This document shows positions 5,161 to 16,237 of a stretch of 64,000 bases of DNA, piece after piece. The stretch is from the sequence record PZ049694.1; one strand, 5' to 3'. Origin of the DNA: a phage. Below the pieces are notes generated by a model. The model saw nothing but the letters and a program-made list of their open reading frames with translations, ran no database searches and had not been told where the DNA came from. The position numbers were made by a program, and so were the translations under genes. Each line of letters opens with the position of its first letter. Position 1 is the stretch's first letter.

Positions 5161-6156
5161 TCATTCCTTAAGAAGTTTTACTACTTGAATAAGATTAGCT
5201 CGTTCTGTTTTATTTTTACCGTTTAAGCCTGCTAATCGTGAGATTTCATCATCAGTCTGTTGAATAGTTACATTAAGTTCGTTAATCAAAGCTTCAAAGT
5301 ATTTGATTTGCTCAGCATGTTTTGATTCAAATTTTTGAACCGGAATAACGTCTTGGTTTAGTTCATCAATAAGGTCTTTAAGAGCATCTTCTTGGTTGAT
5401 ATCATATTCAACTTCTTTTATTTCTTCAACGAGCTCGTCTTTATATCTAACGTCTTTTAGTCCTGGTGCTGGTCCTGAAATCTCTTCTTTAAGAGTACAA
5501 ACATATCCAATACGGTATCCAATACCGTCTCGCTTGATAACAACTTCGTCAATAAATCCACAATGTTTAAGACCGGAGCCGATTAGGTCAAAATATCCTT
5601 GACGTCGTCCTTCAAACGTTACACGAACTACTAAGACAGTTTTACCTGCAACCTTTTGAAGCTCACATTTATAAAAGTCTGTTGAACCTGAATAACGTGG
5701 ATGAGTTTTAAAGTTCATCTGACGATCTAGACCCATTTGTAAGCGTGCTGATACGGCCATAAAACGTGTTTGGTTCTCGTTAAGATGAGCAACAATCCAT
5801 TTCAAAGGCATTTTACACTGTTCACGACCGAACAAATCAGTACGTCCTAGATTACGCAGGATGTTGTTAGAGTTAATCATCGACAGAACGTTAAGTTTAT
5901 TCAGCGCGCTGAAGATTCCATCGGCCATTGATTTTCCGTAACCTTTACACGCTTTAATAAGCGCTCGCGGTAGATTAGTATAGATTTCAGACGGCATATG
6001 AAAATCAAATTTACTAGTCAGTAATTGATGAACTTGGATAGCAATTTGCTCATAATTAAGTGCTCTGCGATCATTATGGTCTTTAAACCACACTTTAATC
6101 TGTGAAGCACATAAACCGTTAATTTCATGTTTTACCGCATCAGATGTAATGCTCAT
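5161..6156 (-). CDS. hypothetical protein with C-terminal coiled coil, 331 aa
   Basis: ORF; third member of a loosely similar trio 3160..6156. Confidence 0.6.
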   Translation of the reverse strand: MSITSDAVKHEINGLCASQIKVWFKDHNDRRALNYEQIAIQVHQLLTSKFDFHMPSEIYTNLPRALIKACKGYGKSMADGIFSALNKLNVLSMINSNNILRNLGRTDLFGREQCKMPLKWIVAHLNENQTRFMAVSARLQMGLDRQMNFKTHPRYSGSTDFYKCELQKVAGKTVLVVRVTFEGRRQGYFDLIGSGLKHCGFIDEVVIKRDGIGYRIGYVCTLKEEISGPAPGLKDVRYKDELVEEIKEVEYDINQEDALKDLIDELNQDVIPVQKFESKHAEQIKYFEALINELNVTIQQTDDEISRLAGLNGKNKTERANLIQVVKLLKE

Positions 6157-6218
6157 AACTATTTCCTCAGATTGAATTGGAACTCAAAACCATTATAACC
6201 CGTCCTTGGGTAAAGCGT

Positions 6219-6746
6219 TTATGCGTGAACCGTCTTTAAACGTTCTTCAAATTTCCGAAGAGTACTAATACGTTCTGCTTTCTGTTTTGTATAGTTTGCA
6301 ATACGTTCTGAAGTGAGAGCGTATCGTTCGTTTACTGTTTCTTTCATGAAGTCAGGGATTTCACGAGAAGCTTTAATTTCATCAAACTTATCGAGTACTG
6401 CCTGGTCTTCAGCGATTAAATTTTCGTACATCTCGATATCTTTCTTGATAAACTCGATATCTTCCTGGGTTACTTTGGATAAACGAGATGCTTTATCCTT
6501 TTTGTACTGCTCGTTAGTTTCACGAGACCAGAATAATGTACGTTTTTTGTTAGTGTTTTTGTAGACTTCCACAATTCCAACTGAATCGATGATAGCAATC
6601 CAATTCCAGCGAGATTTGAAAATCTGACCTCCGTCCACGGTAATCTCGTTACCATAAGCAACGTCATTAAAGAACTTGCTTTGTGCTTCAGATTTAAATT
6701 TACCGTCGTTATAATTTACCAGGTTGAAAATATCTTTAGCGTTCAT
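6219..6746 (-). CDS. hypothetical protein, 175 aa
   Basis: ORF in early gene chain. Confidence 0.6.
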   Translation of the reverse strand: MNAKDIFNLVNYNDGKFKSEAQSKFFNDVAYGNEITVDGGQIFKSRWNWIAIIDSVGIVEVYKNTNKKRTLFWSRETNEQYKKDKASRLSKVTQEDIEFIKKDIEMYENLIAEDQAVLDKFDEIKASREIPDFMKETVNERYALTSERIANYTKQKAERISTLRKFEERLKTVHA

Positions 6747-11473: not shown

Positions 11474-11505
11474 GCCAAAAAGCCCCAACCATAAGGAAGG
11501 GGCTA
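11474..11505 (-). terminator. rho-independent terminator after rI
   Basis: minus strand agcccc-ttccttatggtt-ggggct then TTTTT; near-copy of the terminator at 27324..27355. Confidence 0.65.
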
Positions 11506-11510
11506 GTAAA

Positions 11511-11813
11511 TTAGATAGATGTAGGCTCTAATTTTATTTTCATGAACTCGGCAAATTGTCTGGCAGTTTTTATGCCTTGTTCATGACATTCAAATGCATC
11601 ATCACAGGGGCTATTTTTGTAATGCTTTACCATATACTTATAGAATTTTTCAGAATTCTCGACATTTTGAATTTCAAACAAAGTATATACGTTTTTAATC
11701 CCTGATTCCATAAAGTTGTCAAAATATGGGTCGGTGTACGCAGTACCAACGATAGGAGTTGTTGCTGCAAAAAACCCCAGCATCGCCATGACAGCTATCG
11801 CTCTTAAGGCCAT
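11511..11813 (-). CDS. rI: lysis-inhibition regulator (antiholin) rI
   Basis: signal-anchor N-terminus and DP.FD.FMESGI..VY.LFE...E.S..FY.......KN.PC...FEC...G motif matching recalled T4 rI; sits next to tk as in T4. Confidence 0.85.
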   Translation of the reverse strand: MALRAIAVMAMLGFFAATTPIVGTAYTDPYFDNFMESGIKNVYTLFEIQNVENSEKFYKYMVKHYKNSPCDDAFECHEQGIKTARQFAEFMKIKLEPTSI

Positions 11814-11825
11814 ATAGGCCTCCTG

Positions 11826-12038
11826 TTAATTTTGGCCAGTATTTATTTTTCGCCTTTGGACGGCCTTAACATCTGTGAGGTATTTTTCCAGCTTGCGCTT
11901 GCGTGTATAATCAGCTTTAGAACCAGTTTGACGGATATCCTCGTTTAAATGAGAAATAGAATGTCCTAATTCTCTTCGGATTTCATCCAGTTGGGTTACA
12001 GTAAGATTACGAAGTTGTCTTTCGTTTAATTGCTGCAT
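11826..12038 (-). CDS. hypothetical basic protein, 70 aa
   Basis: ORF between tk and rI. Confidence 0.5.
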
Positions 12039-12065
12039 ATATACCTCTTGGTTAGATATTAGTAT

Positions 12066-12647
12066 TTATAACAACCCTGTCAAATCATTCCAATGCTTCC
12101 GGCATAATGACACATATCTATCAGTATCACCAATTTCAATTTGACTGCCATCTGTAATTGGAAGTCCGTCTTCCGTGACTCTAGCTACCATTGTGGCCTT
12201 TTTACCGCAATGACAGACACCTTTAAGTTCAACAAGCTTATCGGCAATAGCCATTAATGCTTGAGAACCTTCAAATAGATTACCTTTAAAATCTGTTCGT
12301 AGTCCATATGCCATTACCGGCACATTGTATACGTCAACAATACGACTAAGTTGATACACCTTTTCAGTAGTTAAGAATTGAGCTTCGTCAACAAATACAC
12401 AATGAATATCCTTTTGTGCTGCAGCCCATTTATAGAATTCAAAGATATCCATGTCTTTTGTAATTATATTGGCGTCCTGACGAATACCAATACGAGAGAC
12501 TATTTCACCTTTTGAATCGCGAGTATCAATAGCCGGTTTAAGAACTAATACACCCATGCCACGTTCTTTATAGTTATGTGCGGCTGTAAGTAATGAAGCA
12601 GACTTACCAGCGTTCATAGCGGCATATGTAAAAATTAAACTAGCCAT
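12066..12647 (-). CDS. tk: thymidine kinase
   Basis: 193 aa; P-loop MNAGKS, VDEAQF, CxCG zinc motif; matches recalled T4 tk. Confidence 0.9.
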   Translation of the reverse strand: MASLIFTYAAMNAGKSASLLTAAHNYKERGMGVLVLKPAIDTRDSKGEIVSRIGIRQDANIITKDMDIFEFYKWAAAQKDIHCVFVDEAQFLTTEKVYQLSRIVDVYNVPVMAYGLRTDFKGNLFEGSQALMAIADKLVELKGVCHCGKKATMVARVTEDGLPITDGSQIEIGDTDRYVSLCRKHWNDLTGLL

Positions 12648-12837
12648 AAGAGTCCTTAGTTAAATTTTCTAAATATGTTTCTAAATCATTTTCGGCTTTA
12701 TCGATAGATTTTACTAATTCGTAGTATGTTTCAGCATCTCCATAATCCGAAGCCAATTCAAAAGATAAATCTCGTTCTAAACTAATAATTTCGCTGATTA
12801 AAAATCGTATTTCATTCTTTTGTTCGCGAGTAATCAT
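12640..12837 (-). CDS. hypothetical acidic protein, 65 aa
   Basis: ORF; overlapping stop/start with neighbours. Confidence 0.5.
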   Translation of the reverse strand: MITREQKNEIRFLISEIISLERDLSFELASDYGDAETYYELVKSIDKAENDLETYLENLTKDSYG

Positions 12838-13040
12838 AAGGAATTTATATAATCAATAAGTTCTTGTTCTTTATCGTCGAAATCTTTACACAGTTCTTCG
12901 TATTCGTCGGTATTAAAAGGACCGCATTCATCGCAAACTTTTTCCAATTCACTATTTTTATCCATAACTTCGTGAATAAGAGAAAACAGTCTGTCTTTTT
13001 GTTCTTTACTTAAACTCATAACCATGTCACCTTTAAGCAA
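12834..13040 (-). CDS. hypothetical acidic protein, 68 aa
   Basis: ORF. Confidence 0.5.
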   Translation of the reverse strand: MLKGDMVMSLSKEQKDRLFSLIHEVMDKNSELEKVCDECGPFNTDEYEELCKDFDDKEQELIDYINSL

Positions 13041-13243
13041 TATTCTTCTACATGTTGTTTACGGCCTTTCTTATCGATAAAAGTATATTCAACGAATGTT
13101 CCGATGTAGTCTTTATCTACATCATGTGGACTATTAATTGGACATTTGGTACGACAAATGCGTTCCCATTGACGAATAATTACTGCCTTATTCTTTGGGT
13201 CATATGGATGTGGATAATGTATATTCATAATAATGGTTCCCAA
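13016..13243 (-). CDS. hypothetical protein, 75 aa
   Basis: ORF. Confidence 0.45.
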   Translation of the reverse strand: MGTIIMNIHYPHPYDPKNKAVIIRQWERICRTKCPINSPHDVDKDYIGTFVEYTFIDKKGRKQHVEEYCLKVTWL

Positions 13244-13722
13244 TCAACAATCACAATTTCTAGTTTAGTGGAATACGTATCTAAAATCTCTTCGATGACA
13301 TCCCAGTTTCCACCACCAATACCTGCACCAATTCTTGGCATATAAATTACAGGCTTTGTTATCTTATTCTTTCCGAATTCATTTAATTCTATTATACAAT
13401 TCATTAAAGCATAGTACTCAAAATTAGGTCCCGGCTCAAACTGTGTATAAAGATTAAAGCAATAAGCTTTATGGGTCTTAAAATATTTTTCATAAACCGA
13501 ATAAGTCCCGAGTTTAGACTTGTCTCCGAATTCGGTTTGAAGTTTATCGGCTTCTAAAATTTTTGGATAAGCCTTTGCTAATTGTCCTGCCACACCAGCG
13601 CCCATTGTATGAAAACAATTACACCCATGAGCAATATTATTACCTTTAGAAAACAGGGCGACAATATCGCCCTTGATATAGTTTTTAATCACTTGCTGCA
13701 AGTCCTCTAGTATAAGAGTCAA
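13225..13722 (-). CDS. macro-domain protein (ADP-ribose binding/processing fold), 165 aa
   Basis: GDIV...NIAHGCNCFHTMGAGVAGQL resembles the macro N..GGGV.A motif; second glycine-rich loop PRIGAGIGGG. Confidence 0.6.
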   Translation of the reverse strand: MTLILEDLQQVIKNYIKGDIVALFSKGNNIAHGCNCFHTMGAGVAGQLAKAYPKILEADKLQTEFGDKSKLGTYSVYEKYFKTHKAYCFNLYTQFEPGPNFEYYALMNCIIELNEFGKNKITKPVIYMPRIGAGIGGGNWDVIEEILDTYSTKLEIVIVDWEPLL

Positions 13723-14032
13723 CTAGACGGTCCACCATAGAATTGCATGCTGCCTTATCTTTAGGTTCCGCCACCGAGCATTCTAATATTTGCCATTTTT
13801 TATAGTATCTTTTAATTAAGGTAGACGCCTTGAACCTACTAGACGCCCCATCTTTTTCTCCGTCTTTATACGCATATAACAATTTTTGTGAAAAATCTAC
13901 TTTACACTCTTGACTTTGACCACAATAATCAGATGCCGTTCTGTTTGTATACTCCGTTACATCAGTATATGTAGTATTAGCAAGAGCGTTAAATGAAACC
14001 AAGCCAACTATTAAAGCCAACATTTTGGTCAT
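13685..14032 (-). CDS. secreted Cys-containing protein with signal peptide, 115 aa
   Basis: MTKMLALIVGLVSFNALA signal peptide; four Cys. Confidence 0.55.
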   Translation of the reverse strand: MTKMLALIVGLVSFNALANTTYTDVTEYTNRTASDYCGQSQECKVDFSQKLLYAYKDGEKDGASSRFKASTLIKRYYKKWQILECSVAEPKDKAACNSMVDRLVDSYTRGLAASD

Positions 14033-14571
14033 TCTTTTATTTCCAGTAGTTTGTTTGATTTAAGGTAATTAGCCTTTTCTAGGACTTCAGAAGCATATTT
14101 ACTTCCAGCACTCGTCTTCCATCCCGCATTATATGAGGATATAGCTTTTCTTATATCCCCGTTATGTATATTTAACCAATAAGAAAATTCGATATAAGCC
14201 CATCTGGCTGAATTAGACCGCTTAGATAGCATTTTCTTAATTTGGGCATCAGACATATTATAACCAAGCCGGTTAATTCTTGCCCTCATTGTTGGTAGAT
14301 AATTTTGGAACATTCCATACGCATGGTGACCTTTCTTATCTTTAAGATTAATACCGGCAGATGATTCCTGCCATAGTATTGCGGCCATTATGTATCCAAG
14401 TCCTTTCTTATGCATATTTTCATGCGTTTTAAATTTTCCATCCTTAGAAAACTGTTCCCCAAACTGATAAGCATAATTCAAGTTATCGAGTTGGACATTA
14501 CTAAAAGTATGCTCGGAGCTATGTGCTGATAACGAAAGAGCAAATAGACCAGCGAGTAGTGCTTTTCTCAT
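14029..14571 (-). CDS. periplasmic lytic transglycosylase (SLT domain) with signal peptide
   Basis: signal peptide; SLT motifs QESSAG (catalytic Glu-Ser), GMFQ, SYNAGW. Confidence 0.65.
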   Translation of the reverse strand: MRKALLAGLFALSLSAHSSEHTFSNVQLDNLNYAYQFGEQFSKDGKFKTHENMHKKGLGYIMAAILWQESSAGINLKDKKGHHAYGMFQNYLPTMRARINRLGYNMSDAQIKKMLSKRSNSARWAYIEFSYWLNIHNGDIRKAISSYNAGWKTSAGSKYASEVLEKANYLKSNKLLEIKE

Positions 14572-14579
14572 GTTTACCT

Positions 14580-15038
14580 CTAGATTTTAATCACTGCTTT
14601 AGAAGCTTTTCCTGGTAGTCGTTTACTGTTAATAATAGCCATTCTGCATTGAAGAGTCTTCATTTTGAATGCTGGATTTTCGCGACAAACTGTAAGTCCT
14701 AGCCAAAGATTTCCATCAGTTATTTCTAAACGGCCTGGACGATATTCGACACCTTCGACAAAATCTTCATCAACATCTGGACGTGCCGGCATTGATAAAA
14801 ATTCTGCAACTTCTTTAACATGATTTTTTACTTTACGAAATAATTCAAAAACGTAGTTCTCATCTATTTCTCTCTGGATAGCACGATCTAAGAGATGTTG
14901 AGAATACTTGATATGAAAGCCTGGTAGTCCAAGAGACTTTGCAGCATCTTTTATACCGGCATTTATTTTGCGGAACTCCGTTTCAAAGATTCGACGGAGT
15001 TTATTACGGCGGATAAAAACGTCAGAATTGATAGTCAT
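14580..15038 (-). CDS. regB: RegB site-specific endoribonuclease
   Basis: 152 aa; MTIN..VFIRRNKLRR.FE.EFR.IN...KYSQHLLDRAIQREIDE.YVFELF...RLPGKASKAVIK matches recalled T4 RegB. Confidence 0.88.
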   Translation of the reverse strand: MTINSDVFIRRNKLRRIFETEFRKINAGIKDAAKSLGLPGFHIKYSQHLLDRAIQREIDENYVFELFRKVKNHVKEVAEFLSMPARPDVDEDFVEGVEYRPGRLEITDGNLWLGLTVCRENPAFKMKTLQCRMAIINSKRLPGKASKAVIKI

Positions 15039-15046
15039 TTTTGATT

Positions 15047-15096
15047 TCTCCTCTAGTTGACAGGTCTATAGTAACACAACTAGAGGAGAAGTAAAC
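15047..15096 (-). promoter_or_regulatory. PeSL-like early promoter with 13-bp stem pairing the regB Shine-Dalgarno
   Basis: GTTTAC, 17 nt, TACTAT; arms tctcctctagttg / caactagaggaga; the 3' arm holds the regB GAGGAG. Confidence 0.55.
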
Positions 15097-15437
15097 TACT
15101 CTTTGAAAGGAATTAACTTTTTAACTGCTTTAGATACTTCGTCACGAACCTGGTGGAAGTTCTTGAGCTGTTCAAGGCGTTGTTCGTAATACGCAATCTC
15201 ATCTTCTTCAAGACAATCGTCAGCGTCTTCTTTCAGATATGCCTTGTACTCATTAAAGAGGGCCCATAGGCGATTCTCAAAGTCATCAAGGCTTTGAATT
15301 TTCTTGTGCTTCGGAACAAGGCCAAAAGGATTGCTTTCAGTTATGCGTCGAGATGCTTCATAATGAGTTCCAAAGCCTGATAGGATTTGAGCCATTAGTA
15401 TTTTTCCTCTGGTCGAAATACCGCACGGCATGCCCAC
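15096..15437 (-). CDS. hypothetical protein, about 100-113 aa
   Basis: ORF; start uncertain (possibly MAQILSGF). Confidence 0.5.
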
Positions 15438-15661
15438 ATGCTGGCTTCTTTTAGATGTTGCTTAGCATACTTAAGAGCCTGCACTGCATCCATATCTTCT
15501 TTGGTTTGTTGCTCTGATTCATTTTCTTTCAAGATATATGCTTCTTCAATCAGAGCATCAAACATCAATCCAAGACGGACTTCTGCGTCTTTAATAGCGT
15601 TCACTTTACTGATTTTATCATCGGTATGTGGCTTGTAGCCTTTGATGTCTTCAATCGACAT
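15395..15661 (-). CDS. hypothetical protein, about 88 aa (start MSIEDIKGY)
   Basis: internal ATG with GAGGA Shine-Dalgarno; upstream part of track ORF overlaps the preceding gene. Confidence 0.4.
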
Positions 15662-15875
15662 AAGGAATTTCCTCATCGGTGGCAAGGTCATATTCAACCA
15701 ATTGGATAGGCTCATTAATACCATATCCGCGTACAGTGATATCAGTTGTCGGATATTTTCCAGTAATATCACCCGTTCTAAATGCTTCAATGAATGATTG
15801 CTCGCCTGAGCAACTAAACCAGGCGGCAAAACATTTTAAAACATCTTCGGACCCTTCTATAATCAATTTAGCCAT
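15651..15875 (-). CDS. hypothetical acidic protein, 74 aa
   Basis: ORF; start overlaps the GrcA-like stop. Confidence 0.5.
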   Translation of the reverse strand: MAKLIIEGSEDVLKCFAAWFSCSGEQSFIEAFRTGDITGKYPTTDITVRGYGINEPIQLVEYDLATDEEIPYVD

Positions 15876-16237
15876 TATAGACTCTCAGTAAAGGTGCGAG
15901 CGATAACGTCGCGCTGCTGTTCCGGAGTCAGAGAGTTAAAGCGAACTGCATAACCAGATACACGGATGGTCAGCTGCGGATATTTTTCAGGATGCTTAAC
16001 TGCATCTTCCAGAGTTTCACGACGCAGAACGTTAACGTTCAGGTGTTGACCACCTTCAATTTTAACTTTAGGTTGTTGTTCAATTTCAATTTCACGAGCA
16101 TTCAAACCGTAGAAAATTTCCGGGTCTACAATATCGTCTTCTTTAAAAGTCTTAGAGACAATAATCCGGGCTTGAATACCGTCTTCAAAATAAATAGTGC
16201 CTTTATGTGCACCTTCAAGAATTTGATATGCTTTCAT
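15875..16237 (-). CDS. grcA: GrcA-like autonomous glycyl-radical cofactor (PFL C-terminal domain homolog)
   Basis: 120 aa; glycyl-radical signature RVSGYAVRF; C-terminal half matches recalled E. coli GrcA/YfiD ([45 protein letters not shown]). Confidence 0.8.

Follow-up and report, generated by a model that had tools for sequence, protein, structure and literature searches.

The window, that is, the whole 64,000-nucleotide stretch of phage DNA analysed (sequence record PZ049694.1), is 99.4% identical to a Mosigvirus-type (RB69-like) phage and contains, between tk (12066-12647) and regB (14580-15038), a block of three minus-strand ORFs. Their products are orthologous to T4 Tk.4 (83% identity), Vs (66%) and Vs.1 (83%), and the T4 order tk–tk.1–tk.2–tk.3–tk.4–vs–vs.1–regB is kept. 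An earlier sequence-only reading had described them as encoding a macro-domain protein, a secreted Cys protein and a secreted lytic transglycosylase; the ORFs, the motifs it quoted and the tk and regB flanks are all present, but it did not recognise the ORFs as tk.4, vs and vs.1 and left the 'Cys protein', which is Vs, unnamed. Relatives were detected by tblastn over 50,697 phage records in 2,793 (macro), 796 (Vs, all from phages of enterobacterial hosts) and 2,054 (Vs.1), and, as judged from sequence, the three ORFs are real genes and not chance ORFs. They represent tk.4 (adfM), vs and vs.1, early genes of T4, in their Mosigvirus form, are packed via overlapping stop and start codons (the vs start ATG overlaps the vs.1 stop as ATGA), and are probably co-transcribed with regB; a scan for sigma-70-like promoters and MotA boxes found no site between regB and vs.1.

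The macro gene (13225..13692, minus strand) encodes a stand-alone macro domain of 155 aa with no export signal and with the motifs GDIV...NIAHGCNCFHTMGAGV and PRIGAGIGGG. Its start had been placed at 13722, 30 nt too far upstream: TTG 13722 is merely the first TTG of a mechanically called ORF and was rejected in favour of GTG 13692, which aligns with the ATG of T4 tk.4, lies 10-11 nt downstream of a GAGGA box as in T4, and shares bases with the vs stop (GTGATTAA). The macro ORF is 468 nt long in 99%-identical contigs, and its true start is probably GTG 13692, to go by these sequence features. The protein is 83% identical to T4 Tk.4 across 155/155 residues and is encoded at the same genomic position, between tk.3 and vs, and so is the orthologue of AdfM, as T4 Tk.4 is now called; both have 155 aa and share the family-invariant residues, including N-L-Y-T-Q. 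The two differ in genus (Mosigvirus, not Tequatrovirus), in start codon (GTG, not ATG) and at Gly127, where T4 has Lys.

The macro-domain assignment held in profile searches. Pfam Macro (PF01661) matched at 27.6 bits against a gathering cut-off of 22, with residues 32-146 of the 165-aa ORF aligned to profile positions 2-117 of 118, and PHROG 335 matched at 3.7e-66. When the macro family profile was compared with the PDB, the top matches (1e-16 to 3e-10) were TARG1 (1.2e-16), BT1257 (2e-16), SCO6735 (1.3e-14) and the DarG proteins of Mtb (4e-13) and T. aquaticus (3e-10), with Poa1p also among them, whereas viral MacroD-like nsp3 reached just 2e-4; sequence search with the protein itself gave BT1257 at 4.5e-10 and yeast Poa1p at 1.9e-8. 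On this sequence evidence the macro protein belongs to the ALC1-like, TARG1/DarG/SCO6735 class. Among its closest solved relatives are SCO6735 and BT1257, which are likewise stand-alone ALC1-like macrodomains of ~150-160 aa but are cellular, not phage, proteins, and SCO6735 has a 'mobile loop' five residues longer (PMC9411070). It is of the same macro fold class as the DarG macrodomain (PDB 5M31, 5M3E, 5M3I), and presumably acts likewise on ADP-ribose linked to thymidine in ssDNA, but lacks the C-terminal DarT-binding domain. PADLOC DarG matched at 3.3e-8 over the macro part only, and NCBIfam NF048014 (DarG) at 29.9 bits against a 250-bit equivalog cut-off over model positions 4-146 of 338, the protein ending at residue 155. 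Its gene has vs and tk.3 (DUF7202) as neighbours and no adjacent darT. By neither score nor neighbourhood does the protein qualify as a DarG antitoxin. A plasmid search with the macro protein returned stand-alone macro proteins only and no DarG.

A further difference from DarG lies in the active site. Gln84 (codon 13441..13443, minus strand), invariant in 35 homologues and located inside the N-x-Y-T-Q motif, occupies the position of the catalytic Lys in TARG1 (K84) and DarG (K80). In the profile-PDB alignment Gln84 corresponds to TARG1 K84 (of 'LITK') and Gly126 to TARG1 D125, so that neither the catalytic Lys nor the Asp of the TARG1/DarG class is present. SCO6735 has Gln85 at the catalytic Lys position, and this residue is essential (PMC9411070). 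By sequence, the Gln84 site of the macro family appears to match this SCO6735 variant, the equivalence of Gln84 and Gln85 being transitive via TARG1 K84 and not from a direct alignment. The uniform occurrence of Gln, not Lys, at this position would therefore place the AdfM family with SCO6735-type enzymes and not with DarG, which bears on the idea of 'stolen antitoxins' and on the choice of mutants.

At the other end of the block, vs.1 (14029..14571, minus strand) encodes a 180-aa protein with a predicted signal peptide (14518..14571, minus strand; residues 1-16/18, MRKALLAGLFALSLSA(HS), by heuristic) and a predicted SLT/GH23 (family-1 lytic transglycosylase) fold. The motifs WQESSAG, YGMFQN and SYNAGW, together with a downstream Tyr, correspond to the Glu-Ser, G-L-M-Q-like and A-Y-N-x-G signature of family-1 transglycosylases, and 47 homologues show no variation at residues E69, S71, G86, Q89, N90, Y147, N148, G150 and Y159. 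Glu69 (codon 14365..14367, minus strand), in a W-Q-E-S-S motif at a helix end, is the candidate catalytic acid. The earlier SLT assignment stands on these motifs and on the fold, but profile evidence for it fell short: Pfam SLT (PF01464) scored 19.6 bits (E = 6.9e-4), below the gathering threshold of 21.3, and PDB searches with Vs.1, by single sequence and by profile HMM, retrieved no lytic transglycosylase. Some Vs.1 orthologues carry a precomputed PF01464 match, and structure comparison of predicted Vs.1, whose AF2 model is of low confidence at the N-terminus (pLDDT about 61-63), was the sole PDB route to a lytic transglycosylase and returned the lysozyme-like SLT fold.

Export of Vs.1 and Vs was called with a home-made heuristic for n-h-c peptides with an A-x-A or lipobox site, which was passed by 53 of the 62 distinct Vs.1-like ORFs (failures being mostly mis-called starts) against a background of 8% of other ORFs. 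We propose that Vs.1 is an exported small lytic transglycosylase with Glu69 as candidate acid; a literature search found no tested function of vs.1. Compared with family-1 lytic transglycosylases such as Slt70, MltE, MltF, MltC and EtgA, it would be a minimal single domain of ~160 mature residues, very divergent (14-17% identity) and of putative activity; its gene is an early phage gene that encodes neither the endolysin nor the tail lysozyme.

The middle gene, vs (13685..14032, minus strand; 'valyl-tRNA synthetase modifier'), encodes 115 aa, falls in PHROG 1256 (6.7e-35) and shares with T4 Vs its length, its position and the invariant C-terminal SMVDRLVDSY-x-RGL, so that the question of export applies equally to both. 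Its hydrophobic N-terminus has the n-h-c pattern of a Sec signal peptide (13979..14032, minus strand; residues 1-18, MTKMLALIVGLVSFNALA followed by NTTY), with a predicted ALA/N cleavage site by the same heuristic. Both proteins therefore have the signal-peptide-like N-termini that the sequence-only reading had ascribed to them. The heuristic called an export signal in all 49 distinct Vs-like ORFs (a lipobox in four), and two Cys pairs occur throughout (C37, C43, C85 and C96 in the window). Both pairs lie in loops of helix-turn-helix elements, as would suit oxidative folding, and Vs is predicted to be a small, disulfide-stapled four-helix protein, probably exported. T4 Spackle, which inhibits the gp5 tail lysozyme in the periplasm, is likewise a small, signal-peptide-bearing, all-helical early protein, a likeness to Vs that is one of analogy only.

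A Vs-like gene lies directly 3' of vs.1 in 50 of 70 loci, and in published T4 data vs and vs.1 are both depleted in LB and in M9, whereas tk.4 matters solely on DarTG2. Adjacency, export signals and this common fitness signature together suggest an exported Vs.1–Vs pair, whose genes would form a unit separate from the macro gene, possibly a periplasmic cassette of two genes, ancient in T4-like phages and relevant to growth especially in minimal medium. Vs might then not be, or not only be, a ValRS modifier, and we tentatively propose that it is an exported partner of Vs.1 acting as regulator, inhibitor or targeting factor; its classical association with ValRS would be a second function or would follow loss of compartment integrity. 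If so, T4-like phages would have a conserved early cassette that remodels peptidoglycan in the periplasm, measurably affects fitness and lends itself to direct testing; and should Vs prove to be exported and to work with Vs.1, a functional label that has stood in the T4 genome for 50 years would need revisiting.

Export of Vs conflicts with its textbook cytoplasmic role, and no report of it was found in the literature. We regard it as rather unlikely that Vs is purely a cytoplasmic ValRS modifier, its N-terminus lacking signal-peptide function and its place next to vs.1 merely reflecting inherited gene order. The N-terminal sequences of the 49 homologues diverge, yet n-h-c/AXA character is kept in them, one lineage having switched to a lipobox (LSGC), and the two Cys pairs at helix-turn-helix loops also speak against a cytoplasmic protein. 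Distant homologues in Acinetobacter phages keep signal and Cys pairs while dropping the SMVDRLVDSY motif. Moreover, predicted mature Vs (97 aa) has a mass of 10,992 Da, which we take to be the size of the classical ValRS-bound factor, and this equality would imply signal cleavage. The cytoplasmic role is the one annotated in T4 and in hundreds of genomes, and gene order is generally conserved among T4-like phages. PMC8076793 bears on both sides: it cites the classical biochemistry in which a ~10-kDa phage factor was bound to ValRS, and it describes N-terminally tagged Vs produced in the cytoplasm as insoluble, the latter again at odds with a cytoplasmic protein.

As to the macro protein, its most likely role is counter-defence against DarT2, in agreement with the earlier suggestion that it might reverse an ADP-ribosyl mark of host defence. 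T4 tk.4 was named adfM (anti-DarT factor Macrodomain) in a 2025 preprint, where it was the sole significant T4 gene on a DarTG2 host (46 TA sites, mean 288.0 falling to 45.3, log2FC -2.64, adjusted p 0) and where a clean tk.4 knockout made T4 DarTG2-sensitive (bioRxiv 10.1101/2025.11.20.689424); this requirement on a DarTG2-expressing host applies to the T4 allele. T2 and T4 without adfN or adfA stay DarTG2-resistant (PMC11825919). SCO6735 cleaves ADP-ribose from thymidines in DNA, and cells are rescued by it from DarT (PMC9411070). In the proposed mechanism, the host DarT2 toxin would ADP-ribosylate thymidines in single-stranded phage DNA and so block replication, and the macro protein, which is cytoplasmic and an orphan relative of the macrodomain of the DarG antitoxin, would hydrolyse ADP-ribose off the thymidine base and reverse the damage, probably with a Gln-type active site like that of SCO6735 and unlike the Lys of DarG and TARG1. 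Orthology, fold class and active-site make-up are established for the window protein and the T4 genetics come from the preprint, whereas the chemistry of the hydrolase step on DNA we infer. The window thus adds a further orthologue of a counter-defence gene newly characterised in T4.

It is improbable that the protein counters DarT2, or another ADP-ribose system, without catalysis, by binding the toxin or sequestering an ADP-ribose-derived ligand. Its lack of the catalytic Lys and Asp of TARG1/DarG would be in keeping with this, as would the finding that DarT is still inhibited in vitro, through interaction, by the catalytically dead mutants SCO6735 Q85A, DarG K80A and TARG1 K84A (PMC9411070) and the example of AdfB, another phage anti-DarT factor, which acts by binding (PMC11481870). 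However, SCO6735, which shares this Gln, is highly active as an ADP-ribosylglycohydrolase on DNA (PMC9411070), no variation is seen between phage lineages in the complete set of ADP-ribose-binding loops or in the N-x-Y-T-Q motif, as expected of an enzyme, and the DarT-binding domain through which DarG extends beyond its macro part is missing.

Highly improbable is a role in phage physiology, in which the macro protein would erase Alt/ModA/ModB marks or hydrolyse ADP-ribose-1''-phosphate or O-acetyl-ADP-ribose. Reversal of Alt/ModA/ModB marks, to which the sequence-only reading had pointed, is unlikely because these are arginine-linked and the TARG1/DarG class acts on acidic-residue or nucleic-acid ADP-ribose linkages, arginine not being among its substrate classes. 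The likeness to Poa1p, which is an ADP-ribose-1''-phosphate phosphatase, and the annotation of T4 tk.4 as 'phosphatase; A1pp motif' favour such a role; T4 RNA repair is not known to yield ADP-ribose-1''-phosphate. SCO6735 and TARG1 do also de-modify proteins (PMC9411070), but in published T4 data tk.4 insertions are cost-free in LB or M9 without DarTG2 (log2FC -0.07), and the sole conditional phenotype reported for tk.4 is that on DarTG2.

That all three genes form one envelope-directed module, as the sequence-only reading had it, is barely credible despite the conserved vs.1-vs-tk.4 order (all three genes in 47 of 70 loci; in 53 the macro gene follows vs.1 within 3 kb) and the overlapping reading frames, since an export signal was found by the heuristic in 0/54 macro homologues against 49/49 for Vs and 53/62 for Vs.1, the fitness signatures of tk.4 and of vs/vs.1 differ, Acinetobacter T4-like phages keep vs.1-vs with no macro gene within the 5-kb flank downstream of vs.1, and the macro family occurs in many phage groups without a Vs match. 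Lacking an export signal, the macro protein falls outside such a module, which is thereby largely refuted for its gene; only vs.1 and vs look like one. We think it likely that the block is a Mosigvirus tk.4/vs/vs.1 segment in which a counter-defence macro protein adjoins a separate, exported vs.1–vs unit. Apart from the loose end of Vs, this is already known, and ordinary, the macro and SLT assignments having been made in 2003–2006.

Lastly, an Rfam scan of 11500-16000 matched no RNA family, and the macro gene contains, 20-38 nt into its coding sequence (13655..13673, minus strand), a hairpin rich in G+C, GGGCGAT-ATT-GTCGCCC, with a U-rich run behind it. It scored as a terminator-like match (-13 kcal/mol), is conserved in T4 and shows pair-preserving substitutions in related phages, and by its sequence resembles an intrinsic terminator or attenuator; the annotation of phage vB_EcoM_NBG1 labels it 'terminator'.

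The three ORFs lying between tk and regB are the orthologues of T4 tk.4, vs and vs.1 (83%, 66% and 83% identity to Tk.4, Vs and Vs.1, respectively), a set of T4-type genes already known. The sequence-only reading had placed all three ORFs, whose quoted motifs are indeed all present, and had missed these identities. Over the surrounding 3.1 kb, which has every gene on the minus strand, the phage shares 99.4% identity with Escherichia phage vB_EcoM_JQD51 and 97–99% with many RB69-like phages, classed as Mosigvirus (Straboviridae, Tevenvirinae). Pfam and PHROG scans identified thymidine kinase (tk, 12066–12647, minus strand), the tandem paralogues tk.1 and tk.2 (12640–12837 and 12834–13040, minus strand; both matching DUF7438 and PHROG 653), a DUF7202 protein and RegB (14580–15038, minus strand), with the macro ORF (13225–13692), vs (13685–14032) and vs.1 (14029–14571) among them. 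The T4 reference genome has the identical order tk, tk.1, tk.2, tk.3, tk.4, vs, vs.1, regB. Only 8 nt separate regB from vs.1, whose start is preceded by a GAGG box; the vs ATG overlaps the vs.1 stop (ATGA), and the GTG at 13692 that starts the macro ORF overlaps the vs stop (GTGATTAA). Given these overlaps and the short gap, and since scanning between regB and vs.1 found no promoter-like site, regB, vs.1, vs and the macro gene are probably co-transcribed and in part translationally coupled.

The macro ORF had been started at 13722, a TTG that is only the first possible start codon. GTG 13692 matches the T4 protein start, has a GAGGA box 10–11 nt upstream in both this phage and T4, and gives the 468-nt ORF length seen in metagenomic contigs of 99% identity. 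A strong hairpin (13655–13673, minus strand; GGGCGAT-ATT-GTCGCCC, −13 kcal/mol) with a U-rich run behind it sits 20–38 nt into this coding sequence. It is kept in T4, shows pair-preserving changes among related phages (AAG to AAA with CTG to TTG; GTC to ATC), is missing where the encoded peptide is not KGD[IL][VI]AL, and is labelled a terminator in one GenBank record; it might act as an attenuator, transcriptional or translational, between vs and tk.4. Also inside the macro gene, at 13413 (minus strand), is a MotA-box-like middle-promoter motif (TATGCTTTA, 13-nt spacer, TAGAAT) that could drive tk.3 through tk.

The macrodomain assignment was borne out by Pfam Macro (27.6 bits, threshold 22). 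By sequence alone, the nearest solved structures were BT1257 (4.5e-10), yeast Poa1p, SCO6735, DarG and TARG1. A profile built from 35 homologues matched TARG1 (1.2e-16), BT1257 (2e-16), SCO6735 (1.3e-14), Poa1p (3e-13) and DarG of M. tuberculosis (4e-13) and T. aquaticus (3e-10) far better than coronavirus nsp3 macrodomains (no better than 2e-4), which places the protein, on profile evidence, in the ALC1-like/TARG1–DarG class. Matches to DarG models were confined to their N-terminal macro part (PADLOC, 3.3e-8; NCBIfam equivalog, 29.9 bits against a cut-off of 250), so the protein is a stand-alone ('orphan') macrodomain. DarG in the strict sense was rejected on two defining features: the protein lacks the C-terminal DarT-binding domain, and no darT was found among the neighbouring genes.

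Across the 35 aligned homologues 16 positions do not vary, among them H22, G23, N25, C26, an N80-x-Y82-T-Q84 motif and a P119-x-I-G-x-G loop. Where TARG1 has catalytic Lys84 and Asp125, the phage family aligns Gln84 and Gly126. SCO6735 carries Gln85 at the site of TARG1 K84 and DarG K80, and its activity is abolished by Q85A and by Q85E; the enzyme is efficient at stripping thymidine-linked ADP-ribose from DNA and can rescue cells from DarT (PMC9411070). The phage active site thus appears to be of the SCO6735 type, an equivalence that is transitive via TARG1 rather than from direct alignment.

In T4, the record describes tk.4 as 'phosphatase; contains A1pp phosphatase motif', a match already reported in a comparative study of 2006 (PMC1524935). 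DarTG2 resistance persists in T2 and in T4 after loss of adfN, and in T4 after loss of adfA and adfN together, from which a further anti-DarTG2 factor had been predicted (PMC11825919). In a 2025 HIDEN-SEQ preprint, tk.4 alone among T4 genes reached significance when the host expressed DarTG2 (46 TA sites; a fall in mean reads from 288.0 to 45.3, log2FC −2.64, adjusted p 0), and a clean knockout sensitised T4 to DarTG2; the authors noted an AlphaFold likeness to the DarG macrodomain and renamed the gene adfM (10.1101/2025.11.20.689424). The counter-defence role suggested for the macro domain from sequence agrees with this knockout result. As an AdfM orthologue, the protein would remove ADP-ribose from thymidine, a reaction stated as likely for AdfM in the preprint; thymidine-linked ADP-ribose is its most likely target, as for SCO6735 and DarG. 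A housekeeping role, such as removing Alt or Mod marks made by the phage itself, is disfavoured because T4 tk.4 insertions carry no cost in LB or M9 without DarTG2 (10.1101/2025.11.20.689424). At 15395–15829 (minus strand), some 1.7 kb upstream from the macro gene, is an orthologue of T4 vs.4/Acb2, an anti-CBASS nucleotide sponge, conserved over its C-terminal ~88 codons (Pfam Acb2_Tad1_hairpin, 2.6e-17), so that this early region carries at least two counter-defence genes.

Vs.1 scored just below the Pfam SLT threshold (19.6 against 21.3) and HMM searches of PDB gave no match. An AlphaFold2 model from 47 homologues was confident (pLDDT 90, pTM 0.83). The SLT domain call made from sequence was right. 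E69 and S71 (W-Q-E-S-S), G86/Q89/N90 (Y-G-M-F-Q-N), Y147/N148/G150 (S-Y-N-A-G) and Y159 are invariant in the family and correspond to family-1 lytic transglycosylase motifs. A classical signal, positive charge then a hydrophobic stretch, is predicted at its N-terminus. A marginal SLT match of vs.1 was noted in 2006, earlier PSI-BLAST having tied it to lysozyme (PMC1524935); our literature search found no report assaying Vs.1 activity.

In the supplementary T4 data of the HIDEN-SEQ preprint (10.1101/2025.11.20.689424), the reads per TA site for regB, vs.1, vs and tk.4 averaged, respectively, 178.6, 22.6, 26.6 and 289.6 in the LB control; 403.0, 11.9, 5.0 and 275.0 in M9; and 267.3, 9.4, 9.9 and 288.0 in M9 glucose with empty vector at 30 °C. 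Insertions in vs.1 are thus as depleted as those in vs, about 10-fold below the neighbours in liquid LB and 25–55-fold in M9 (Extended Data Table 6), a signature common to both genes and absent from regB and tk.4. The preprint highlights vs alone (log2FC −2.19, adjusted p 0; vs.1, −0.87, adjusted p 0.155). Depletion in vs.1 could be mere polarity on vs, but insertions in regB, likewise upstream with no promoter-like site between, are not depleted.

Vs was identified by PHROG 1256 (6.7e-35) besides its identity to T4 Vs. The family is tiny (1.8 billion proteins yielded 7 representative clusters), and all 796 phage records found by tblastn are from phages of enterobacterial hosts. Vs is modelled as a bundle of four helices (overall pLDDT 84, >90 over most of the mature part) with residues 1–17 unstructured, C37/C43 flanking the helix 1–2 turn and C85/C96 the helix 3–4 turn; structure comparison gave no specific relative. 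Its N-terminal stretch (MTKMLALIVGLVSFNALA|NTTY) is organised n-h-c, and predicted cleavage at the A-L-A site would leave 97 aa (10,992 Da). Vs is named after a phage factor that binds cytoplasmic valyl-tRNA synthetase. The factor is reported to be of about 10 kDa, the predicted mature size, which would imply cleavage. His-tagged T4 Vs expressed in the E. coli cytoplasm was insoluble (PMC8076793).

Among 70 distinct viral contigs encoding a Vs.1 relative, whose ORFs were searched with HMMs of the three families, 56 had a Vs-like ORF (in 50 of them immediately next to vs.1 and co-oriented with it), 53 had a macro ORF within 3 kb downstream of vs.1, and 47 had all three genes. Several ORFs after vs.1 that fell below the HMM threshold resemble Vs in their length, signal and Cys pairs and have its C-terminal motif C-x2-Y-[RK]-x2-L-[ML]-x2-[YF]-x-G-L; one from an Acinetobacter phage aligned to the Vs profile with 4/4 Cys in register (hhalign E = 3e-5, probability 73%). 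A simple signal-peptide heuristic was positive for 49/49 distinct Vs-like ORFs and 53/62 Vs.1 (failures mostly mis-called starts), against a background of 115/1,464 (8%) for other same-strand ORFs, and for 0/54 macro ORFs. The proposed small envelope-directed module may hold for Vs.1 and Vs; the macro gene was wrongly grouped with them. The Cys spacing of Vs is conserved (C-x5/6-C ... C-x8/10-C), and in one lineage of T4-like phages (IMG/VR contigs L035–L039 and L060, ~5549–5875) the homologue directly after vs.1 has a lipobox (L-S-G-C; MKKLFVLLVVFALSGC...) where others have an A-x-A signal peptide; the L039 copy of the gene is cut short at 65 aa. Signal character kept in divergent sequence, the lipobox switch, the paired Cys and the fixed placement after Vs.1, a predicted exported muralytic enzyme, are difficult to square with a Vs confined to the cytoplasm. 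An exported Vs.1–Vs cassette is a tentative proposal that we consider rather unlikely, and the export question is a modest, testable curiosity beyond the already-known genes.

In Aeromonas phage 44RR2.8t, other small ORFs, one lipoprotein-like, replace vs, with vs.1 and tk.4 still nearby. Further small proteins with N-termini of signal-peptide or lipoprotein type follow vs.1/vs in one Acinetobacter and one Aeromonas T4-like phage (loci L004, 3785–4210, and L003, 3799–4239), the Acinetobacter one just upstream of rI; exported early proteins may have a hotspot here. In the most divergent set of T4-like contigs (L064–L071, IMG/VR), the order vs.1 ... vs ... macro is retained, with a 131–134-aa ORF lacking a signal peptide between vs.1 and the Vs-like gene (~5500–6500).
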